Virus record (IMG/VR): IMGVR_UViG_3300037189_005453
Span: 1 to 64,000 of that record
DNA: 64,000 bases
Strand: one strand, 5' to 3'
From: a virus
Both the position numbers and the translations under genes were made by a program. Positions 6,756 through 26,592 of the stretch are shown piece after piece. Each line of letters opens with the position of its first letter. The stretch's first letter is position 1. Under the pieces are notes generated by a model. It saw only the letters and a program-made list of their open reading frames with translations, did not search any database and was not told the origin of the DNA.

Positions 6756-6989
6756 ATGACTATGTTTTTAGTCGTTGAATACCACCCAGATATGCCCGTG
6801 GTAAGGGGTTGGTCTCTCTACAAGGAGTTGGAGAACGCTAACCGTAAAGCCGATTACTTAAAGGCTTGGTTACCCCCTGAGTGCCACGAAGATGTCAAGG
6901 TTATCCCTATCCAAGTAGAAGATGACCCTGACCCTATGGCTAACTGGACAGTGGAACTCATAAAGAGCTTAAAGTTCAAAGAAGTCTAA
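6756..6989 (+). CDS. hypothetical protein
   Basis: GAAAGG RBS. Confidence 0.7.
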   Translation: MTMFLVVEYHPDMPVVRGWSLYKELENANRKADYLKAWLPPECHEDVKVIPIQVEDDPDPMANWTVELIKSLKFKEV

Positions 6990-15455: not shown

Positions 15456-15622
15456 TGATGGATAAGGAAGAAATCCTGGCGTATGTGCGTAAGCGCGTAC
15501 AGGAGATCGAGAACGACATGGATGAGTGGGGGTTCGGCCCCGAAGATATGGATGAATGGACGCAGGGTAACTACGAAGCGTACAAGCATCTGTTTACAAT
15601 CATTATCGGAACAAAGGAGTAA
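15455..15622 (+). CDS. hypothetical protein (55 aa)
   Basis: GGAGG RBS, TAATG coupling. Confidence 0.65.
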   Translation: MMDKEEILAYVRKRVQEIENDMDEWGFGPEDMDEWTQGNYEAYKHLFTIIIGTKE

Positions 15623-15626
15623 TAAA

Positions 15627-15932
15627 ATGCAGTACTACAAAGAACTAGATTCAGAACTGGCGAACTGTTTAGGCACTGACCCTGACATGTTCTTTCCCGA
15701 TGCTGGTGACCGTTGGGCACTCGGCAAAGCACAAAAGATATGTGCAGTGTGTGACATCCGAATGGACTGCTTGCAGGTAGCCCTAGACAACGATGAGAAA
15801 GAAGGTATCTGGGGAGGTGCGGGAATGACAGCACGAAAGAAAATGAAAAAAGACCCCGCAGCCCGCAAAGAGCACGAACGTGAAATGCGTAAACTCGCTA
15901 AGGAAATAAATAAAGGAAAAAAGAATGGCTGA
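15627..15932 (+). CDS. whiB: WhiB family transcription factor
   Basis: C...DPDMFFP...ICAVCDIRMDC...GIWGG; AAGGAG RBS before MQYYK. Confidence 0.95.
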   Translation: MQYYKELDSELANCLGTDPDMFFPDAGDRWALGKAQKICAVCDIRMDCLQVALDNDEKEGIWGGAGMTARKKMKKDPAARKEHEREMRKLAKEINKGKKNG

Positions 15933-16709: not shown

Positions 16710-17189
16710 ATGCAGACATTCATGCCCTCTGTTAACTACACAGAGACAGCAAGTATGCTGGACAACAAGCGCCTTAATAAGCAAGCGCTAGAAGGCTGGC
16801 AGATTCTTATGAACCTGCTCGAGCTAGACCCCGAAGGCAATTACCGTGCTCCTAAAGGTTGGAGTAATCACCCCGCAGTTAAGATGTGGCGTGGCTACGA
16901 GTGGTCACTCTATACATACATCCAAGAGATGGTTAAGGAGTGGAAGCGACGTGGGTTTAAGTCAACCATTGGAGACAAAGCGACTAAAACGTTCCTTGTC
17001 TTTAATAAGCGACCACTAACACTCGAGCACCCTGATTGGCTCGAAGACATGCGCACATCAGACTCGGTTACATCAAGCCACCGCCTGGCCTTGCTTGTCA
17101 AGGACTACGAGTGGTACTCTCAATTCGGATGGGAAGAAGACCCTGGCTATCCTCCCGTCGATTACGAATACACCTGGCCAGTAGAGTAA
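16710..17189 (+). CDS. pyrimidine dimer DNA glycosylase-like protein (MSMEG_6728/DenV-like family)
   Basis: MQTFMP, LDNKRLNKQALE, GWSNHPAVKMWRGYE, SHRLALL, YTWP. Confidence 0.88.
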   Translation: MQTFMPSVNYTETASMLDNKRLNKQALEGWQILMNLLELDPEGNYRAPKGWSNHPAVKMWRGYEWSLYTYIQEMVKEWKRRGFKSTIGDKATKTFLVFNKRPLTLEHPDWLEDMRTSDSVTSSHRLALLVKDYEWYSQFGWEEDPGYPPVDYEYTWPVE

Positions 17190-17479: not shown

Positions 17480-17519
17480 AATCCCCCCTGGCTCTACTGC
17501 AGGGGGGATTGTTTGTGTT
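17480..17519. terminator. terminator at the convergence of + and - transcription
   Basis: AATCCCCCCTG/CAGGGGGGATT stem followed by GTTTGTGTT. Confidence 0.75.
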
Positions 17520-17575: not shown

Positions 17576-19054
17576 CTAGCCTTCTAGGTTGTTCTGGATA
17601 ATTCTGGTTGTTTGATCCTCATTCAGAGGCTGTTGCATCTCCTTTAGAGCACTTGCTCGGTCTCCAAAAATAGCACTTAGCACGCCGCCAGAACTCTCTC
17701 GAGACGCGGTGATTTGTACAAACTCTTTGTCGGTTTCTAGGTCCTTCATGTTACCTACCAACTTAAACAAGCGGTCTATCTCCTGTGACACATTTGGGTC
17801 AGCGTAGCCGCCATTTAGCTCCTCTTGGAATCGCATGAATGCCACCCTTTGGCCCTGCATTTCAACGATTGTGGTCAACAACGCTTTCAATTGATCCTTT
17901 GTCTTAACCTCCACTGGCAGGTTAAATCCACAGGTACTTGCGGCCTTGAATGCTGGACAATTTGCTGCGACAAAACACGTGTCGCATTGTCTTACGCTCC
18001 CATAATTGGACTGAACAACTGGTACGTCCTTTAATACTTCACGCCCATCTTCGGTCTCTACAACGGTCTTCATGTTGTATCCAAAAACAGGCATCGAAAT
18101 GACCTCTTGCGGGTCTCTTTGCGTAACTTCTGCTCCTTCAGGTTTCCGCTTTTCTAAACCACTGTTATTAGAAACCACCCCCCCTATTTCCATCAAACCT
18201 GTGTATAGGGTGTCATCACTGTTATCAGATACTTTATCGTTATTGGGTCGCTTTGCCATTGTCTTCTCTAACTGTAAATAGGACCAAACTGCTACTTTGG
18301 TTGCTTCCTTCGTGTCATCTTCTACGAACTTTGTGAAATCTAGCCCAGCTTTCTCCACGACTGTTTTGTAACGCAACCGTGCCTGGGCCTTCATTTTTTT
18401 TGGATACCTGGCCAATCTCGCTCCGTCGTACACAATGGTTTCTCCATTACGCATTGGCGACAACCAGGACAACGTGCTGACAGAATCAAACGGGATGCTT
18501 CGCAAATTATCTGGTTTTGCGGTCCCCAATCCGTGAATGCGTACATCGTACGCTCCTTTGATCCTACGGATTACGCTCGATAACACTGGCACACTATCAA
18601 TCGCTGCGCCAGAAATGGCTACATTGCTCCACTCTGCCGCCCACTGTTCCAACAACGGAACACTGTACGCTTCGTGCCAAACTACCCACAATTTTGGATC
18701 GTTTTCATACACTGCGCGGTTTTGCACAATGTCGTGCAATCCCAATACTTGTGAATCAAATTCGGTGAACCCCTCGATGCGGTCGTAATTCATCGCGATG
18801 AACTCTTCGTAATCCGACGCGTAGGCTTCCAACTCTCCTTTGGACAGGTTGGCTTTGTCTGCCTGCGTTGCTCCGCTATCTACCCAAACTTTCATCTCTG
18901 GCAGGAAATGCTCACCAATCAGGTACGGTTTTGTTTTTGGCAAACCACGCTTACGGAGGCCCCAGTAATTCAACATTACGTTGTTTACTCCCATGGACTC
19001 CAACAGCGTCCTGTTGCTGGGGATTTCTACCCCACTAAAAATGATCTCACTCAA
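17576..19054 (-). CDS. TGT/DpdA-like (queuine tRNA-ribosyltransferase fold) domain fused to a Cys4/helical C-terminal domain
   Basis: VWVDSGA, VVWH, RIHGLG, PFDSVSTLSW; C-terminal CDTC..NCP..C. Confidence 0.7.
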   Translation of the reverse strand: MSEIIFSGVEIPSNRTLLESMGVNNVMLNYWGLRKRGLPKTKPYLIGEHFLPEMKVWVDSGATQADKANLSKGELEAYASDYEEFIAMNYDRIEGFTEFDSQVLGLHDIVQNRAVYENDPKLWVVWHEAYSVPLLEQWAAEWSNVAISGAAIDSVPVLSSVIRRIKGAYDVRIHGLGTAKPDNLRSIPFDSVSTLSWLSPMRNGETIVYDGARLARYPKKMKAQARLRYKTVVEKAGLDFTKFVEDDTKEATKVAVWSYLQLEKTMAKRPNNDKVSDNSDDTLYTGLMEIGGVVSNNSGLEKRKPEGAEVTQRDPQEVISMPVFGYNMKTVVETEDGREVLKDVPVVQSNYGSVRQCDTCFVAANCPAFKAASTCGFNLPVEVKTKDQLKALLTTIVEMQGQRVAFMRFQEELNGGYADPNVSQEIDRLFKLVGNMKDLETDKEFVQITASRESSGGVLSAIFGDRASALKEMQQPLNEDQTTRIIQNNLEG

Positions 19055-19532
19055 AATTCAACGCCTCCGTACGTGACAATCGGGCGTCTTGTGTCCTTAA
19101 TGAATTTTGCTCTTCTATGGCCTTTTCAATATCATTCCATGCGCGCACTCTCTTTGGCGCATCTGGTCTGAACTCTGGCCGCGTATAACTTGGCACGCCA
19201 AACATCATCGCTGCGATTCCCTGCTCGAATGCAAATGCCCACAGTGTCGGATCATTTGTGATAAACAAATCCACTGCTCCAATTGAACGGGCAAATGTGA
19301 TCTGTCGCTCGCCCAGCTTCTCATCAACCAGGCTCACGGATGAATCAATAATCTTATCAAAATCAACAATTTTGTTGACATCCAACCACTGTTGTGTTAA
19401 CTTCGCGTCCAGCGGTGACATCAACGTGATTTTATTCCACGCACTTAACGACCCAACCGTGATAACCCCTTGGGAAATCGGTTGGTCGTTCGGGCCCCTC
19501 AGTACGCCATCTAAATCCACCAATATTTGCAT
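19047..19532 (-). CDS. HAD-superfamily-like protein
   Basis: N-terminal ILVDLDGVL (DxD motif I). Confidence 0.7.
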   Translation of the reverse strand: MQILVDLDGVLRGPNDQPISQGVITVGSLSAWNKITLMSPLDAKLTQQWLDVNKIVDFDKIIDSSVSLVDEKLGERQITFARSIGAVDLFITNDPTLWAFAFEQGIAAMMFGVPSYTRPEFRPDAPKRVRAWNDIEKAIEEQNSLRTQDARLSRTEALNFE

Positions 19533-19642
19533 TAATAATCCTCGTCATCAGCTCCATTGCAATCACACTTGCAATAATCGTCGGTGCATATGCCCTTCAG
19601 CAATTCGTGCCCGCACCAATGACAATAATCTGTTATGGACAC
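19532..19642 (-). CDS. 36-aa Cys-rich peptide
   Basis: GTG start overlaps upstream TAG and stop overlaps downstream ATG; MSITDYCHWCGHELLKGICTDDYCKCDC... Confidence 0.55.
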   Translation of the reverse strand: MSITDYCHWCGHELLKGICTDDYCKCDCNGADDEDY

Positions 19643-20517
19643 TAATTGTTCCTATACAACGCCGCGCGGCGAACTAATGTGTCTGCGTCTGGCAACTCGA
19701 CATGTTGCGTCAGGTTTGTTTTCATGTACTCACGAATGGCGCGCAACTTGTCAATTGTTCCATAACGCTTGCCCAACTGCCAACGATAATTGTTGAAATC
19801 GTTGTATCCTTGGCCCTCTGACGAAAATGCGATTGATCTATTTTCGTGAATCTCGTTATACAACGCGTTGGCCTGCGCAGCGGCCATCGTCATTTTGTTT
19901 TCCGCATTACGCTTCATAGGACCATTGGATGACATCTGAACATCCTGTAATGCTCCATTAAAACGGTTATGTGCTGACTCTGCCATTTCGGCATCGCGCT
20001 TTGCAATCTGATCCCACTCGGCGTTCCACATCGGTGTCTGATTTGGATCGGGGGTTACTGTCCAGTCGTCATGCTTCAAATCGTACGCTGCGTACGGCTT
20101 AATTGCACGGATATTTGTGGCTGAAGGATTAACATAAAACGTCAGCTCATAACCATTCCAGTTGGACGTCTGCAACTGCAGGTTTTCGTGAAACTCTTCG
20201 TTGAGTTCCGCTGCAATTTCTCTGTCTGACAACCCTGTAAACTCTGGGTTTGCCTTACGGAATTGAATAAAATTTACCCCAACCAGGCAATCTAGGTCAC
20301 CTGGTTCTCGGGCAGCCTCCCACTGGTATGAAACACCAGACCCAGCTAACCACGGTTGCGCCCACAGTTCTGGGTGTCGGTAATGGAGGTTTAGGAAATC
20401 CATCAACAGTGCCATTATTCCTTGGCGCACCCACGAACGGAGGACCCGCCCTTCAAAAAGGGTCGGGTCCAACGTGGTCGCTGGGTGGCTGAAATAACTT
20501 GTCGGGTATACAGTCAT
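19642..20517 (-). CDS. Pol-beta superfamily nucleotidyltransferase
   Basis: WLAGSGVSYQW...GDLDCLV (hGS..DxD), YELTFYV; leaderless (TAAACT-6 nt-ATG). Confidence 0.8.
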   Translation of the reverse strand: MTVYPTSYFSHPATTLDPTLFEGRVLRSWVRQGIMALLMDFLNLHYRHPELWAQPWLAGSGVSYQWEAAREPGDLDCLVGVNFIQFRKANPEFTGLSDREIAAELNEEFHENLQLQTSNWNGYELTFYVNPSATNIRAIKPYAAYDLKHDDWTVTPDPNQTPMWNAEWDQIAKRDAEMAESAHNRFNGALQDVQMSSNGPMKRNAENKMTMAAAQANALYNEIHENRSIAFSSEGQGYNDFNNYRWQLGKRYGTIDKLRAIREYMKTNLTQHVELPDADTLVRRAALYRNN

Positions 20518-20526
20518 GTAACCAGT

Positions 20527-20829
20527 TTATTCGGTTACGGATGCGCTTTCTGGGTCAATCCCGCGCTCCTTCAGCTTCTCTTTAACAGCCTCAGCTGGCG
20601 TAGGCTCCTGGGCCCCCTGCAAAACCGACAACAGTGCGATCATGATTCGGTCAGTCAACTGAGAATTCTCAATCTCCTTTACCAACGCAGCTGATGTAGT
20701 CAACACGTCATAAACGGTTGCGGTACGCTTTGCCTCAATCTTTGTTTCGGGCTGCTCGAGGTCTGCCGTAAACGTTCCGTCGGTGAATACCGATACAACG
20801 AATACTGTGTCTACTTCTTTTTCTGCCAT
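20527..20829 (-). CDS. hypothetical protein
   Basis: AGGAG RBS. Confidence 0.8.
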   Translation of the reverse strand: MAEKEVDTVFVVSVFTDGTFTADLEQPETKIEAKRTATVYDVLTTSAALVKEIENSQLTDRIMIALLSVLQGAQEPTPAEAVKEKLKERGIDPESASVTE

Positions 20830-20845
20830 TTTTTGCTCCTATATA

Positions 20846-21415
20846 TTAATCGTACAATCCTGCCAGCATACGTCGACGCTGTAGGACCATGGAATGAACG
20901 GGACAAAAATTACACGTGTAAATCTTTGGTCCGTCCAAGTGTTCGGGTTTTGGCAGATTCAGGTCTGCTCTTTCCTTTGCGGTGTTTGGCAACAGGCGCT
21001 TTGAATCGCTCTGGTAATCACTGCAATCCTGTTTTGGGCTGTTGTGGCGTTTCCAACAATCCATGGCGTCCTGTGCAAACGTCATCTTTGTGTCGTAAAA
21101 CGACTTTTCAGGGTCTAGGTCATCCAAACCACGTGATCCTGCGCCCAAATTATCCAGAACTGCTTTGCGCTGTTCTCCATTAGCCCACGTCTTAACTGGT
21201 ACTTTAAACAGTTTACCTACGTGAGGTTCCCCCGATGGGAACTTGTGCTTCTCGAGAGTGATCTCGAGGAGGTAATCGCGGTCTGATGGGCCCTCATAAT
21301 CGGGCAACTCTTCCCATGTTTCACACACTAAACAGCGCAGCAAACGAATAACGGGCCCATCGATCTGTTTAGATCCGATGAGGGGTTTACCTGCAGGGTC
21401 AACCAATCCAGCCAA
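20846..21415 (-). CDS. hypothetical zinc-binding protein
   Basis: CLVC, CNFCPVH; AGGAG RBS. Confidence 0.8.
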   Translation of the reverse strand: MAGLVDPAGKPLIGSKQIDGPVIRLLRCLVCETWEELPDYEGPSDRDYLLEITLEKHKFPSGEPHVGKLFKVPVKTWANGEQRKAVLDNLGAGSRGLDDLDPEKSFYDTKMTFAQDAMDCWKRHNSPKQDCSDYQSDSKRLLPNTAKERADLNLPKPEHLDGPKIYTCNFCPVHSMVLQRRRMLAGLYD

Positions 21416-21480
21416 AATATACTCCTATGTGGTGTTACGAATTACTTTACCGTGTTTATGCCTTTATGGCAACTAAACTC

Positions 21481-22230: not shown

Positions 22231-22427
22231 TATGCTAACCGCCCCTTTACACGGCGAGCAGCCTTGGCGTCATTGCAAGGTGGGCAAAGGAGCGAACTCA
22301 TTGCCTCAACAGGGTTAAGGATTACACCGCAGGTTGGGCAGGGGGCTGATCCTCGGTAATTTACCTGGTTTTGTGCAATCTTCCATGCCTGCAGCTCTAG
22401 TGTCTCTGCACCGTCTCCATCAAACAC
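22230..22427 (-). CDS. small zinc-finger protein
   Basis: CPTC...CPPC; GGAGG RBS. Confidence 0.7.
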   Translation of the reverse strand: MFDGDGAETLELQAWKIAQNQVNYRGSAPCPTCGVILNPVEAMSSLLCPPCNDAKAARRVKGRLA

Positions 22428-23377
22428 TACTGTCCACCTCCACTAGGACGCGCTGTTCTAGCACGGCGGTCATCCACGATGTCCTGCGCTTTTTTAGCCA
22501 CTTTACCCCCCATGCGAACCATGTTTGCCTCAGAAAAACGGTTCGCAGGTACTGCTTCGTAGTCACGATCTCCACCGATGCTTTCATCGTTGTCTACCTC
22601 AGTGGGGATACCTGTGGTGCGTGCTAGGTGCTCAAACCACGCTTGACGAACGGTGTCCAGATGGCGACGAGCATTTTTCAACGAAATGTTTGGGAGTGCC
22701 TCATCCGAAGAACTCTTCAACCAGTTTTCCTTGTTTGGGGACCAGTCATCGCTCAGGATTCCTGCACCCCGATTACCTCCTATAGAACGGAGAGTACTGT
22801 TGGACGTGTGCCCTGACGGCATACCAATTTTAACCCTAGGGGATTGATCGGGGTTTGCTTCTGCGAGTGTCAGTGCGTTTGACAGGTGGTCACTTGCCTT
22901 GGTCAAATACTTGGTTGCGTTTACAGGATCCACAGCCATAATGGCTGAACGGTGTAACGCAAGTGCCTTGTGAAACTTTTCAAGGCTATCAACGGCAGGT
23001 GCCATACGCTGGCTTGCCTCGTCGACCACGGGGACTCCGCCAACCATGTCACGCTCTGGGGGAATTCGTACCACTGCGCGAGTTTCTATTCCTTTTGCAT
23101 ATGGAACTTTTGCGGCAGCGACCGACTCTACGGGCTTATCAATAACAGGACTAACTCCTGCAGCGCGAAAAACACGCTCTCCCAGCTCATTTGCGATCAG
23201 CTCGAGAGCATCTCCGTGTTGCATGTTTTCACGGAATGCTGCGTGACCAGCGTTGGCCATTTGCCGTGAGATTCCACTACGGTTTCCCCCTGAAGGAATT
23301 GGGGAGTAACCAGGGGTATTATTCAGCACTTCCTTCAAACGTGCCGCTGCAATTTCTGGGTCTTGTGATTCAGCCAT
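22427..23377 (-). CDS. hypothetical protein
   Basis: 316 aa ORF. Confidence 0.8.
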   Translation of the reverse strand: MAESQDPEIAAARLKEVLNNTPGYSPIPSGGNRSGISRQMANAGHAAFRENMQHGDALELIANELGERVFRAAGVSPVIDKPVESVAAAKVPYAKGIETRAVVRIPPERDMVGGVPVVDEASQRMAPAVDSLEKFHKALALHRSAIMAVDPVNATKYLTKASDHLSNALTLAEANPDQSPRVKIGMPSGHTSNSTLRSIGGNRGAGILSDDWSPNKENWLKSSSDEALPNISLKNARRHLDTVRQAWFEHLARTTGIPTEVDNDESIGGDRDYEAVPANRFSEANMVRMGGKVAKKAQDIVDDRRARTARPSGGGQ

Positions 23378-23379
23378 GA

Positions 23380-26300
23380 TTACTTCTTAAAGAATTCGGG
23401 GTGAGTTTGGGGAGTAGGTGACGGTGCTTTGGTAGCGTCAATTGCCTTTGTAATACGCTGACCCTTGGTTGTTTTCTTTGCTGCGGGCTTCTTAGCCGCT
23501 GGCTTCTTTTCCGCAGGCTTCTTGGCTGTAGACTTCTTGGCTGCAGGCTTCTTAGCTCCTTTAGCCACTGCTGATCTTTCAGCAGTTGCAGGGGTGATGT
23601 CACCAGACATAGTTGCGGCCAGCTCGTCGCGAGTCTTTGGAATCTGTCCAATTGAACGAGGACCACCACTGGGAACAGGTTCGGGTCGGAATCCAGCTTG
23701 ACGCTGATCCCAACGAATGCTCTGCTCCTTCTCCAGCTGCTTTTTGATTGCGTCTTCATCGCGCTCTTCAACAGGCTTTTCAGGAGCTTCAATTTCAACG
23801 TCCTCGGCTTTACGTCCAATACCAGACTGGGTAACGTTGGGAGACTCTTTACCGAGAGACGCAACGTGGACTCCACGGTTTACTACAGGAACAGGTGTGG
23901 CCTGGACTGTCTCGGGAGCAGACTCTCCTGTTCTCCACTGGACCTGTTCCTCTGACTCTGCACCAGTTCCAGAACGCTGACCGTCGATATCCATCGGTAG
24001 TCCCTTTTCGCGACCACGAAGTCGGGAAGTTGATAGTCCTTTAGAACGCTTAATAAACTCTCTAATGATGTCCTTTGGAACACCTGAGAAGTCTGGGTGG
24101 CCTTCTTTAATCATTTTACGAGCGATGTTGAGCTTTTCCTTCATACCCTCGTCGGCCAGGTTAAACGTGTCTTCGCTTCCGTTTAGATCAACACCTGTTG
24201 GAACGTGTGTGATCTTGTACATGGTTTTTCCATTAGCGTCCTGGGATGTCTCAACCTTAATCTTGGGGCCCAGGTCAGCAGCATGAACAATCGAGGCAGG
24301 AATCGGGTTAGTTTTAACTGTCTGAGTACGCTCCGACACCTTACCTGCACGGTTGAACTTGACCTTTGCGTCACGCTTAGCAATCTTCTCAGTTTCATCC
24401 AGGTTTAGGGGAGAAGGCGCGCGCCCTACGGCGTCTGCAACGTGAACGTACTTGTTAACGGGTTTTTCTCCTTTAACAGACAGTTCATCTCCACCACCGT
24501 AGGAAAGTTGCTGGTGAATGTCCTTAATCGTGGCGATGTGCTTTACCAGCTCTTTACGAGCAAACTCACCTGCTTCACGACCAGATACGATCTTTTGCTG
24601 TGTTGCGCGAACTCCGCCAGGAGTCGGGCTGTCAGAGAAGTCGAGGGCAACCCGCGGGAGATGCTGTTGGCCCAGGTATCCCTTGATACGGTCAAGGGCG
24701 GCCATCGTCTTAACAAGGCGGGCGGCCTGTGTCTGAATGTGCTTGTGGACTTCAGGAGCACCGTATGCGAGGGTCGGTGATGCGGTCCACTCACCATTAG
24801 CGTCAAGGATCTTTCCCACCTGCTGTCCGCGACCATCTGTCACAGTATTGTCAGCGGTTGCTGCCGCTGGGGTGTGGGTAATTGATCGAATGTGCGCGGC
24901 AAGGCGCTGAGCTGCGCCGTGTACCTCAGTGAGGGTTTTGAGTGGACTTTGATATAGCGCACCCGAGTCAGTGTTGGCGAGTTCTGATGCCAGGCTTGGT
25001 TTTTCGGGCTCGCGCTCTGTGTTAACTGCGGTAAAGGAGTTGGGGGTTGCCTGTTTCTTTACCCAGTTCTTCTGGGCATCGGCCAGATATGGCTCGGCCG
25101 CTGCGTTTTCCGCTTCTTGCTCTGGGGTTAGCTTATTGCGCTTTTTACCCGTGTGACGAGTGTGCGGCAGTGAGTAGCCACTTATCTCGTCAAAGTGAAG
25201 GAGGTCTTTTCCGCTCTTCTTGCTGGCAGTCTTTGGGGATTTGTACCCCTCAAGACCACGCCACTGAGGCGAACTCTGGTCTTCTGGAAGAGCGGTGTAC
25301 TTGGTTGGGTGGTACTTGGTTCCATCAACCGCGTAAGGTTTGGTAGGAATGTGGCCTTCCAACCCTTCCCAGTCCTCGTGTGATCGGTCGGATGGCAGGG
25401 GGAAACCTGTCCTGGGGTGATATGGGAGGCCGCCCTGGAAGAACGGACGAGTCCTGTCGATGATAATATCCTGGGGAACATGGGCTTCCCAGTTGCTGTG
25501 TACGCTCATATCACGTTCTGGAGCCTCTTCGGCACGCTGTCTACGAGCTTCGCGTTGAGCTGCCTCTGCGTCCTTCAGGGTTTCAAAAGCCCCCCTAAAC
25601 GTACCGTTTCGCGAGCTGCCTCGACCTGTCATGCCCTGAACGATTTCTTCATTTTGGGCAGAGGTTCGTTCCGCGTTTTCGGCTCGTTGCTGCTCCCTTA
25701 CACTACGCTGTTGCTCCTGCTCGGGAGTAGCGGGGCTCGAGTCAATAGTGAGTCCTTTGCCTTGACCGCGAGGTGCAGTATTTGCGCGAATCGCGTCAAT
25801 CTCGGCCTGATGGGCTGCCAGCATTTCTGGAGTCTTTCGACGTCCTCTGTTAAGAGACTCAAACTGACGCTGCTTAGCGTCAACCCGACGCTCGTTATCT
25901 GCCTTAATAAGCTCTAGCTGTTTTGCACGCTTTTCGGGATCGTCATACTTTTCGGAAAGAGAAATCTCATTACCCTGGGGTTGGAAAATGCTAATTCTGC
26001 CGCCGAGTTCGTTTGTGGGGGTAACAAACGGCTTAGTTTCTTCGCTAGATTCCCCAATCTCTGGCATAACACCAGTACCTGCAGCAACTCCTGAACGTCC
26101 AAAAATGGCACGCTTAGTAAGCCCCTTTTCCCAAAGAGCTGCTCCCGTGCTATCAGGTTTCCCAATGCTTCGGTCGCGGTCTTTAACGCGGGCAGGCTCC
26201 CTGAGTCGACTAGGTAATGATGCCCCAATGCCGCCTACTCTTACGGGAGTCGGCTTTAGTGCCTGGCCCTTTTCGTCTGTTCCAAGTCGGCTCATAACCT

Positions 26301-26592
26301 GGTTGTAAATGTGGTGAGGGATAATGTGCTTAGGCCATGACTGGATGTCGGCGGATCGGACCTCACCGTTTTGAGGGTTGTACGGAAGCCTATTTCCCTG
26401 CTCATCCGCGTGAAATGCACTGTGAGTAACACCAGAGGATGTGGGTGCTTGATCGGCCGTGCGAACACGTGCAACGACCTGACTAATCAGGGCCTCATCG
26501 GGGTTGCGACCTGCAGCTGGCTGCTGTGAGCCACCGTCTTCGCTCCCTGCGCCACCGCGTGCTTGGTGAAATGCGCCGCTAGTACCAGCCAT
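23380..26592 (-). CDS. large low-complexity protein with C-terminal histone H1-like PAAKK repeats
   Basis: 1070 aa; AKKPAAKKSTAKKPAEKKPAAKKPAAKK; AGGAG RBS. Confidence 0.85.
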   Translation of the reverse strand: MAGTSGAFHQARGGAGSEDGGSQQPAAGRNPDEALISQVVARVRTADQAPTSSGVTHSAFHADEQGNRLPYNPQNGEVRSADIQSWPKHIIPHHIYNQVMSRLGTDEKGQALKPTPVRVGGIGASLPSRLREPARVKDRDRSIGKPDSTGAALWEKGLTKRAIFGRSGVAAGTGVMPEIGESSEETKPFVTPTNELGGRISIFQPQGNEISLSEKYDDPEKRAKQLELIKADNERRVDAKQRQFESLNRGRRKTPEMLAAHQAEIDAIRANTAPRGQGKGLTIDSSPATPEQEQQRSVREQQRAENAERTSAQNEEIVQGMTGRGSSRNGTFRGAFETLKDAEAAQREARRQRAEEAPERDMSVHSNWEAHVPQDIIIDRTRPFFQGGLPYHPRTGFPLPSDRSHEDWEGLEGHIPTKPYAVDGTKYHPTKYTALPEDQSSPQWRGLEGYKSPKTASKKSGKDLLHFDEISGYSLPHTRHTGKKRNKLTPEQEAENAAAEPYLADAQKNWVKKQATPNSFTAVNTEREPEKPSLASELANTDSGALYQSPLKTLTEVHGAAQRLAAHIRSITHTPAAATADNTVTDGRGQQVGKILDANGEWTASPTLAYGAPEVHKHIQTQAARLVKTMAALDRIKGYLGQQHLPRVALDFSDSPTPGGVRATQQKIVSGREAGEFARKELVKHIATIKDIHQQLSYGGGDELSVKGEKPVNKYVHVADAVGRAPSPLNLDETEKIAKRDAKVKFNRAGKVSERTQTVKTNPIPASIVHAADLGPKIKVETSQDANGKTMYKITHVPTGVDLNGSEDTFNLADEGMKEKLNIARKMIKEGHPDFSGVPKDIIREFIKRSKGLSTSRLRGREKGLPMDIDGQRSGTGAESEEQVQWRTGESAPETVQATPVPVVNRGVHVASLGKESPNVTQSGIGRKAEDVEIEAPEKPVEERDEDAIKKQLEKEQSIRWDQRQAGFRPEPVPSGGPRSIGQIPKTRDELAATMSGDITPATAERSAVAKGAKKPAAKKSTAKKPAEKKPAAKKPAAKKTTKGQRITKAIDATKAPSPTPQTHPEFFKK

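Follow-up and report, generated by a model that had tools for sequence, protein, structure and literature searches.

The stretch of viral DNA analysed here, called the window below, comprises 64,000 nucleotides (nt), positions 1 to 64,000 of the IMG/VR record IMGVR_UViG_3300037189_005453, which is 79.5 kb long and estimated to be 85% complete. On its minus strand, within 17576–20517, lie four open reading frames (ORFs) of 291, 36, 161 and 492 amino acids. The subject of this report is the last of these, the gene for a 492-residue DpdA-like protein (17576–19054), which starts at a TTG codon with GGAGG 8 nt ahead of it. The protein has a TGT-fold barrel with a Ser at the position of the catalytic Asp and a C-terminal domain with a Cys4 cluster and helices, and a conserved DNA motif occurs twice, in the gene and at its end. 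The features of this gene are:

18245–19054, minus strand: TGT-fold (beta/alpha)8 barrel, residues 1–270 of the 492-residue protein (AlphaFold, Foldseek, VIA and hhalign)
18476–18478, minus strand: Ser193 codon, where TGT/DpdA enzymes have their nucleophile Asp; PFDSVSTLSW is residues 188–197
18219–18233, minus strand: motif copy 1, AGTATCTGATAACAG, in a disordered linker
18162–18176, minus strand: degenerate motif copy with 3 mismatches
17579–18085, minus strand: C-terminal domain, residues 324–492, with a beta-hairpin, the Cys4 cluster and four helices
17930–17986, minus strand: Cys4 cluster C357, C360, C366 and C375
17563–17577, minus strand: motif copy 2, AGTATCTGATAACAG, covering the stop codon's final two bases

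The 492-residue protein matches phrog_887, 'queuine tRNA-ribosyltransferase', over its full length (E = 2e-67). An AlphaFold model computed with 87 diverse relatives in the alignment is very confident over residues 1–270, and the predicted local distance difference test score (pLDDT) is mostly above 95 over residues 1–260. When the barrel was compared with solved structures by Foldseek, the top matches were all TGTs (E = 3.5e-6), and VIA gave a Z score of 17.8 to the P. horikoshii ArcTGT (1iq8_A, root-mean-square deviation 3.4, 258 residues aligned) and of 17.4 to the Z. mobilis TGT. Judged by the predicted structure, the assignment to the TGT fold is secure. Within the TGT superfamily the protein belongs, as a divergent member, to the phage DpdA branch, and a profile of the 87 relatives aligned by hhalign to the DpdAs of Vid5, phiFN37 and BCD7 at 99.6% (E = 7e-24). 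The family comprises 1667 clusters at 90% identity among 8000 candidates scored; the wider family numbers at least 988 clusters at 50% identity, and most of those listed are about 460–520 residues long.

Like the canonical enzymes (Salmonella DpdA 7UI4, the TGTs of Z. mobilis and P. horikoshii, and Vid5 DpdA), the window protein has the TGT fold (Z scores of 17–18), the DSG general acid/base motif and the base-recognising Asp. Unlike them, it has neither the nucleophile Asp nor the CxCxxC...H zinc motif directly past the barrel, and it carries the additional C-terminal domain. There is no Cys between residues 200 and 350, and the invariant Cys4 cluster lies at 357–375 in the C-terminal domain. 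Additionally, neither the window protein nor any of the 87 relatives gave a match to the TGT family of Pfam (PF01702).

A study of Salmonella DpdA determined that Asp95 is the general acid/base, that Asp130 and His181 contact the base and that Asp256 is the nucleophile, and guanine exchange was abolished in the Asp95Ala and Asp256Ala proteins (PMC10164549). The counterpart of the nucleophile (D280 in the Z. mobilis TGT, D264 in E. coli Tgt and D256 in Salmonella DpdA) is Ser193 in the 492-residue protein. In the hhalign alignment S193 is placed without gaps opposite the invariant Asp of the canonical phage DpdAs; BCD7, Vid5 and phiFN37 read F(S/T)(C/G)-D-S-(S/T)(S/T)-W where the window protein reads F-D-S-V-S-T-L-S-W. 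By our reading of the alignment, a conserved Gly follows the Asp at a distance of 11 residues in both E. coli Tgt and Vid5, and the residue 11 positions after S193 is the near-invariant G204. The full-length homologues in Streptomyces phage BRock (gp36) and in GiJojo (gene 181), which are 36% identical to the window protein, have Ser and Ala, respectively, at this position.

The substitution extends across the clade. Among the close relatives (76 aligned unique sequences, 58–82% identical) position 193 is Ser in 75, and in the distant set of 87 representatives it is Ser in 42, Thr in 13, Ala in 13 and Gly in 12, with a single Asp. The Asp of the 'FDS' triplet, D190, was considered as a substitute nucleophile and rejected; it precedes the strand in the model and is variable (A, S, D, V or T) in the 76 close relatives.

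The rest of the pocket is kept. T194, D100, E10, E98 and E205 are present in all 76 close relatives, H174 in 74 and H127 in 68. The general acid/base motif D59-S60-G61 is retained (D59 corresponds to D102 of the Z. mobilis TGT and D95 of Salmonella DpdA), with Asp or Glu at position 59 in every close relative. D100 was assigned as the base-recognising Asp from its strand position and the alignment (D156 in the Z. mobilis TGT and D130 in Salmonella DpdA). In the distant set, D59 is found in 61 of the 87 representatives and D100 in 72. By these patterns of conservation, the barrel of the window lineage is not decaying, as its pocket is under purifying selection without a covalent nucleophile, and it erodes further elsewhere in the family. 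A preliminary description of the locus had proposed a TGT-like domain that keeps DSG, has its catalytic Asp replaced in FDSVSTLSW and is fused to a Cys4/helical domain, and the structural matches, the alignments and the four invariant Cys residues bear out each of these points.

It had also reported that no queC/D/E or folE gene is in the window and had argued against classic 7-deazaguanine insertion. Profiles of QueC, QueD/PTPS, FolE and radical-SAM proteins found no match in the whole 79.5-kb record, in agreement with the first statement, and QueC gave no match in five relatives that are 98–100% complete. Classic preQ0 insertion is very unlikely because the clade has lost the nucleophile Asp and no preQ0 genes were found.

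The annotations in PHROG and GenBank nevertheless describe an ordinary enzyme, which would be a singleton DpdA inserting host-made preQ0 or a derivative of it into phage DNA. Hutinet et al. (2019) list the BRock protein (APC46298) in their Supplementary Data 1 as that of a phage with DpdA only ('singleton DpdA') and BCD7 as a phage with DpdA plus preQ0 genes, and they state that whether singleton DpdAs have diverged in function needs more work. BCD7 gp021 (YP_007005872), a long-form phage DpdA, is a relative of the window protein with the same combination of a TGT barrel and a Cys4/helical C-terminal domain. Both belong to phrog_887, and the two segments align at 24% identity each (E = 4e-15 and 4e-12). 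Unlike the window protein, BCD7 gp021 keeps the Asp (FFTGDSTTW), has an insertion of about 300 residues between the domains and adjoins FolE, QueC, QueE and QueD. Against an ordinary DpdA stand the inactivity of Salmonella DpdA Asp256Ala, set beside the lost Asp of the clade, as well as the lack of a Pfam TGT match in the 87 relatives and the searches for preQ0 genes described above. Some actinobacterial hosts (Mycobacterium) also lack the queuosine pathway (Hutinet et al. 2019), and a WhiB-like gene in the record indicates an actinobacterial host. We regard this explanation as highly improbable.

One of the canonical proteins has a setting of its own. In the Fusobacterium phage phiFN37 (L033, 4546–5831) a ParB-like gene overlaps a short canonical DpdA on its upstream side, and a queuosine-precursor transporter is encoded two genes after DpdA, an arrangement that recalls the bacterial DpdA/DpdB pairing.

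The second part of the protein points in another direction. The C-terminal domain contains a GGY.DPN motif in addition to the Cys4 cluster, and residues 357–445 are the most conserved part of the protein, with a mean column conservation of 0.85 as compared with 0.75 for the barrel. A tblastn search with residues 320–492 matched BRock-type and BCD7 proteins and, from the Cys cluster on, gave weak, very consistent matches to proteins of 63 Gordonia phages and 6 Tsukamurella phages. Among these proteins, several are annotated as 'terminase small subunit', and many of the records read 'hypothetical'. In GTE7, Woes, SteveFrench, Linetti and GourdThymes the homologue has 465–472 residues, and its gene abuts or overlaps that of TerL, which is followed by the portal gene. 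The Gordonia phage genes were located as follows:

L095, 66–1484: GTE7 gp001
L096, 4113–5510: Woes gp06
L098, L099 and L100: further homologue genes

A pairwise BLASTP comparison gave E = 4e-7. When the DpdA-like and Gordonia alignments were compared by hhalign, they matched at 95% (E = 3.6e-8), and the 206 aligned columns extend from the last strand of the barrel to the helices. GTE7 gp001 also matches phrog_887 (E = 5e-4), besides its own PHROGs 6902 and 16015, which are both named 'terminase small subunit', and the structural matches in BFVD include the 'terminase small subunit' of Gordonia phage Jumbo. GTE7 gp001 and Woes gp06 (phrog_6902 and phrog_16015) thus resemble the window protein in the last barrel strand, the Cys cluster (CDSC...CPAY...CG) and the helices; unlike it, they have an N-terminal part of 170 residues that does not align to the barrel, they are encoded directly upstream of TerL and they have no motif pair. 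The homology of the C-terminal domain to TerL-coupled proteins of Gordonia phages, as seen in these alignments, is new here. On the same comparisons, the 'terminase small subunit' of about 470 residues (phrog_6902) in the GTE7-, Woes- and Monty-like Gordonia phages is a diverged DpdA-like homologue.

The third line of evidence is in the DNA. On the gene strand, the 15-mer AGTATCTGATAACAG has two exact occurrences in the 64-kb window, and these flank the segment that encodes the C-terminal domain. The motif was found at both positions, with at most 2 mismatches, in 74 of the 87 related loci, its core TATCTGATAACAG being usually intact (the pair lies at 6808–6827 and 7504–7523 in L001 and at 6802–6819 and 7499–7516 in L002). 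It is kept though the proteins are 58–82% identical and the protein sequence of the linker is among their less conserved parts. In the genomes of five complete relatives (91–95 kb) the pair constitutes the only matches. The constraint is on the nucleic acid and not on the protein, because the two copies lie in different reading frames. A role in frameshifting was considered, as TGATAA stops the +1 frame at copy 1, and it was rejected on account of the different frames of the copies relative to the ORF.

BRock and GiJojo also have a repeat pair at the linker and directly past the stop codon, but its sequence is different. The core is GAGTAACTAC, and the copies lie about 810 nt into the gene and 4–5 nt past the stop codon, where the second copy shares bases with the next start codon. 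This repeat has no further occurrence in the 100 kb of BRock. In the window motif and the BRock/GiJojo motif alike, the halves of a short palindrome are separated by a single base, TATC-T-GATA and AGT-A-ACT, respectively. Two sites that vary together in sequence and hold their position suggest recognition by a co-evolving factor, and the motif pair may be a pac-like element, an operator or an element that acts at the RNA level. The conserved 13-nt motif pair is likewise new here; full-text literature searches found no paper on the missing nucleophile, on relatives in the TerS position or on the motif pair.

P22 and SPP1 offer a precedent for a small-terminase gene with a pac site of its own inside it. 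The reading that we favour, tentatively and at somewhat less than an even chance, is that the DpdA-like protein is a DpdA that has been repurposed, no longer exchanges bases and binds the motif pair, possibly as part of DNA packaging. With the loss of the Asp, base exchange by the covalent Asp mechanism would have been given up, and the protein would have turned into a site-specific DNA-binding protein, perhaps with a guanine flipped into the pocket that was kept. Its binding sites would be the motif pair within its own gene. The most likely job would be DNA recognition for packaging in the manner of a small terminase, and autoregulation would be the alternative. A more specific version is doubtful. 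It would have the nucleophile-less TGT/DpdA barrel exapted as a small-terminase-like DNA-recognition subunit in a large lineage of actinobacterial myoviruses, with the guanine pocket and the Cys4/helical domain binding co-evolving pac-like sites in and after the gene itself.

Several points weigh against a repurposed DpdA that serves in packaging. In G001, a complete relative, the early block and a distance of about 25 kb separate the DpdA-like gene from the genes for TerL and portal, so that the adjacency to TerL seen in the Gordonia phages is missing there. The Gordonia phage genes were named 'terminase small subunit' for their position and not on the basis of an experiment, and the Gordonia and BCD7 homologues have no comparable repeat. 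The mapping of S193 to the nucleophile rests on sequence and profile alignment. Furthermore, the conservation of the pocket, including Ser193-Thr194, is explained at least as well by a surviving catalytic or ligand-binding role as by DNA binding alone. In favour of a role in packaging, no PHROG match to a TerS was obtained upstream of TerL in G001, and none is annotated in BRock. A search of five relatives with the TerL of GTE7 returned no TerL; TerL was recognised through PHROG instead.

The lost nucleophile and the retained guanine-type pocket would also be expected of a pseudoenzyme with some other role, such as a decoy that counters defence or a protein that binds guanine-derived ligands, and the motif pair would then be regulatory or concerned with RNA processing and not a packaging signal. 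The copies of the motif differ in frame and share their orientation on the coding strand, which is compatible with a role at the RNA level or as an operator, and so is the overlap of the second copy with the next start codon in BRock and GiJojo. Such a role leaves the C-terminal domain common to the TerL-coupled proteins without explanation, and the gene is a collinear core gene and not a variable moron. We consider this explanation unlikely. A repurposed DpdA that recognises DNA, as favoured above, has to be weighed in addition against a pathway that involves the neighbouring genes. These genes and the end of the transcription unit are:

20846–21415, minus strand: 189-residue protein with two CxxC pairs, homologue of BRock gp42 (tblastn, 35.5% identity, E = 3e-30), present in 75 of the 87 loci
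20527–20829, minus strand: 100-residue ORF that ends 9 nt before the nucleotidyltransferase (NTase) start codon, present in 61 of the 87 loci
19642–20517, minus strand: Pol-beta-type NTase-like protein of 291 residues, with an alpha/beta NTase core in its N-terminal part and a helical bundle in its C-terminal part
19532–19642, minus strand: accessory gene for a Cys-rich peptide of 36 residues that overlaps each neighbour by 1 nt, found by tblastn in 31 of the 87 loci
19047–19532, minus strand: HAD-like protein of 161 residues, VDLDGVL in the window; the motif I nucleophile is not kept in the family
17480–17510, no strand assigned: perfect 11-bp hairpin between convergent gene blocks, likely a bidirectional terminator that ends the unit

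A megablast search of the region against phage genomes returned no match, and sequence and profile searches with the four proteins against Pfam, NCBIfam and PDB found no match to any of them; likewise, the 100-residue ORF had no family match in Pfam, PHROG or profile searches.

In the NTase-like protein, G59, S60, D74, D76 and E124 are invariant in 48 homologous sequences, which agrees with the GS..DxD signature noted in the preliminary description. An AlphaFold2 model (pLDDT 84.6) places G59-S60 after the first strand of the core, D74 and D76 on the next strand and E124 on the third. The best Foldseek matches of this model were to ANT(6), the CCA-adding enzyme, AAD(9) and CD-NTases, and these were weak (E of 0.02 or worse); the VIA lists were filled by matches to the C-terminal helical bundle. 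Its Atlas neighbours carry the name nucleotidyltransferase, and it is 37% identical to BRock gp39. From its invariant residues and their positions in the model, the protein is probably an active NTase. The public call of this gene in the record has a later start and 257 residues; the longer start that gives 291 residues is likely correct, because homologues of 292–301 residues cover the full ORF.

The HAD-like protein is a different case. The DxDGV motif attributed to it is indeed present in the window protein, as VDLDGVL, but it is not a feature of the family. Motif I reads SLDG, QLDG, ELDG or SLNG in relatives and VVEG in BRock, with the first Asp replaced by S, Q, E or V. D6 and D8 are each less than 90% conserved, and R122-P123-D124-A125-P126 is invariant (39 sequences). 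Classical HAD chemistry is not a property of the family because the motif I Asp residues vary among the homologues, and by this variability the protein is probably non-catalytic. No sequence match was found for it in Pfam, PHROG or PDB. Its Atlas feature score to NIF/HAD clusters, 0.89, serves as a lead only, and the homologue in GiJojo is annotated as 'hydrolase'.

The four genes overlap at their stops and starts as had been described, by 1, 1 and 8 nt between the ORFs at 19642–20517, 19532–19642, 19047–19532 and 17576–19054. The single leaderless promoter that had been proposed for them is not supported. There is no space for a promoter before the NTase gene because the conserved 100-residue ORF stops 9 nt before its ATG. 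A consensus scan found no promoter-like site adjoining the NTase gene; the nearest one, at 21472–21444, is weak and lies upstream of the 189-residue gene. The four genes have no private operon, and the 189-residue gene is likely the first of the unit.

The conservation of these genes was examined in 87 related loci, in which the genes of the module were located by tblastn and whose neighbourhoods represent BRock-type phages; three distant proteins used as single queries led to no further loci. All four genes were found again in dozens of related contigs, which is beyond chance. Besides the counts given above, the HAD-like gene was present in 84 of the loci and the NTase gene in 79, and several loci have no room for the Cys peptide gene. 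In locus L017 (4425–5998) the 189-residue, 100-residue, Cys-peptide, HAD-like and DpdA-like genes are found without an NTase gene among them. In L009, L037, L044 and L047, insertions of 300–900 bp separate genes of the module (Cys peptide, HAD-like and DpdA-like); because of these insertions, such close coupling of the genes as in the window does not hold for all relatives. Homologues of the 189-residue (gp42), NTase-like (gp39), HAD-like (gp38) and DpdA-like genes are found in BRock, whose genome is collinear. Unlike in the window, an endolysin gene, gp41 and gp37 are interspersed among them, and the Cys peptide was not detected by tblastn. The conservation of the gene neighbourhood, which the preliminary description had named as a check, is found, in that the module genes recur in dozens of loci and in BRock, but it is part of a genome-wide collinearity with 37 shared ORFs. 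Because of this collinearity with BRock, the co-occurrence shows that these are core genes and not that they act jointly.

The NTase, HAD-like and TGT-like proteins had been proposed to act in an enzymatic pathway, so far undescribed, for the modification or repair of DNA or tRNA. In such a pathway the barrel would work without a covalent Asp intermediate, either by hydrolytic or direct-displacement glycosyl chemistry or by presenting a flipped base to the NTase. A pocket under strong purifying selection with an almost invariant Ser193-Thr194 would suit it, as would the invariant catalytic residues of the NTase, the translational coupling of the genes, their frequency in the related loci and their retention at core-gene divergence between the window phage and BRock. 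The case is weakened by the HAD nucleophile that is not conserved, by locus L017 with no NTase gene, by the extra genes between the members in BRock and by the genome-wide collinearity, which accounts for the synteny. No donor base or substrate source is encoded. Moreover, the wider clade has S, T, A or G at position 193 and has lost D59 in about 30% of cases, which resembles relaxed catalytic constraint. We regard the pathway as rather unlikely, and a repurposed DpdA that binds its motif pair is still the reading that we prefer.

The setting of these genes was determined by an ORF-by-ORF tblastn comparison. The record has 37 ORFs in common with BRock in a conserved order, from the head through the tail and the replication genes to the DpdA-like region. 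It encodes a tail sheath, a tail tube, baseplate parts and a WhiB-like regulator, and the gene for the major head protein is cut by the end of the contig; sheath and baseplate genes are also present in BRock. By gene content and order the phage is a distant collinear relative of the BRock-like actinobacterial myoviruses. An actinobacterial host is indicated because of the WhiB-like gene (15483–15932, plus strand; phrog_472, E = 1e-19) and the collinearity with a Streptomyces phage. A block of minus-strand genes runs from beyond 63 kb down to the hairpin at 17480–17510, where it faces a convergent early block, and the DpdA-like region closes a long late operon at its 3' end. The early block terminates, near the DpdA-like gene, with a gene for a pyrimidine dimer DNA glycosylase (16710–17189, plus strand; Pfam PF03013, E = 8e-21). 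Farther upstream in the late block, two proteins of 316 and 1070 residues without a family match are encoded at 22427–26592 on the minus strand, where BRock has genes for a glycoside hydrolase and a transglycosylase.

DpdA has been described as the signature protein of 7-deazaguanine DNA modification (Cui et al. 2023, PMC10516641), and a 'singleton DpdA' has been annotated in many phage genomes on that basis. The catalytic nucleophile is missing in a very large clade of these proteins, as it was in 86 of the 87 representatives examined of a wider family with at least 988 clusters at 50% identity. Because the clade lacks the nucleophile, predictions of modified DNA made from annotation for BRock-like phages are probably wrong. 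The TerL-coupled relatives and the co-evolving motif pair offer a testable alternative, which is that these proteins may serve in site-specific DNA recognition, perhaps for packaging, and the relatives BRock and GiJojo are cultivable.

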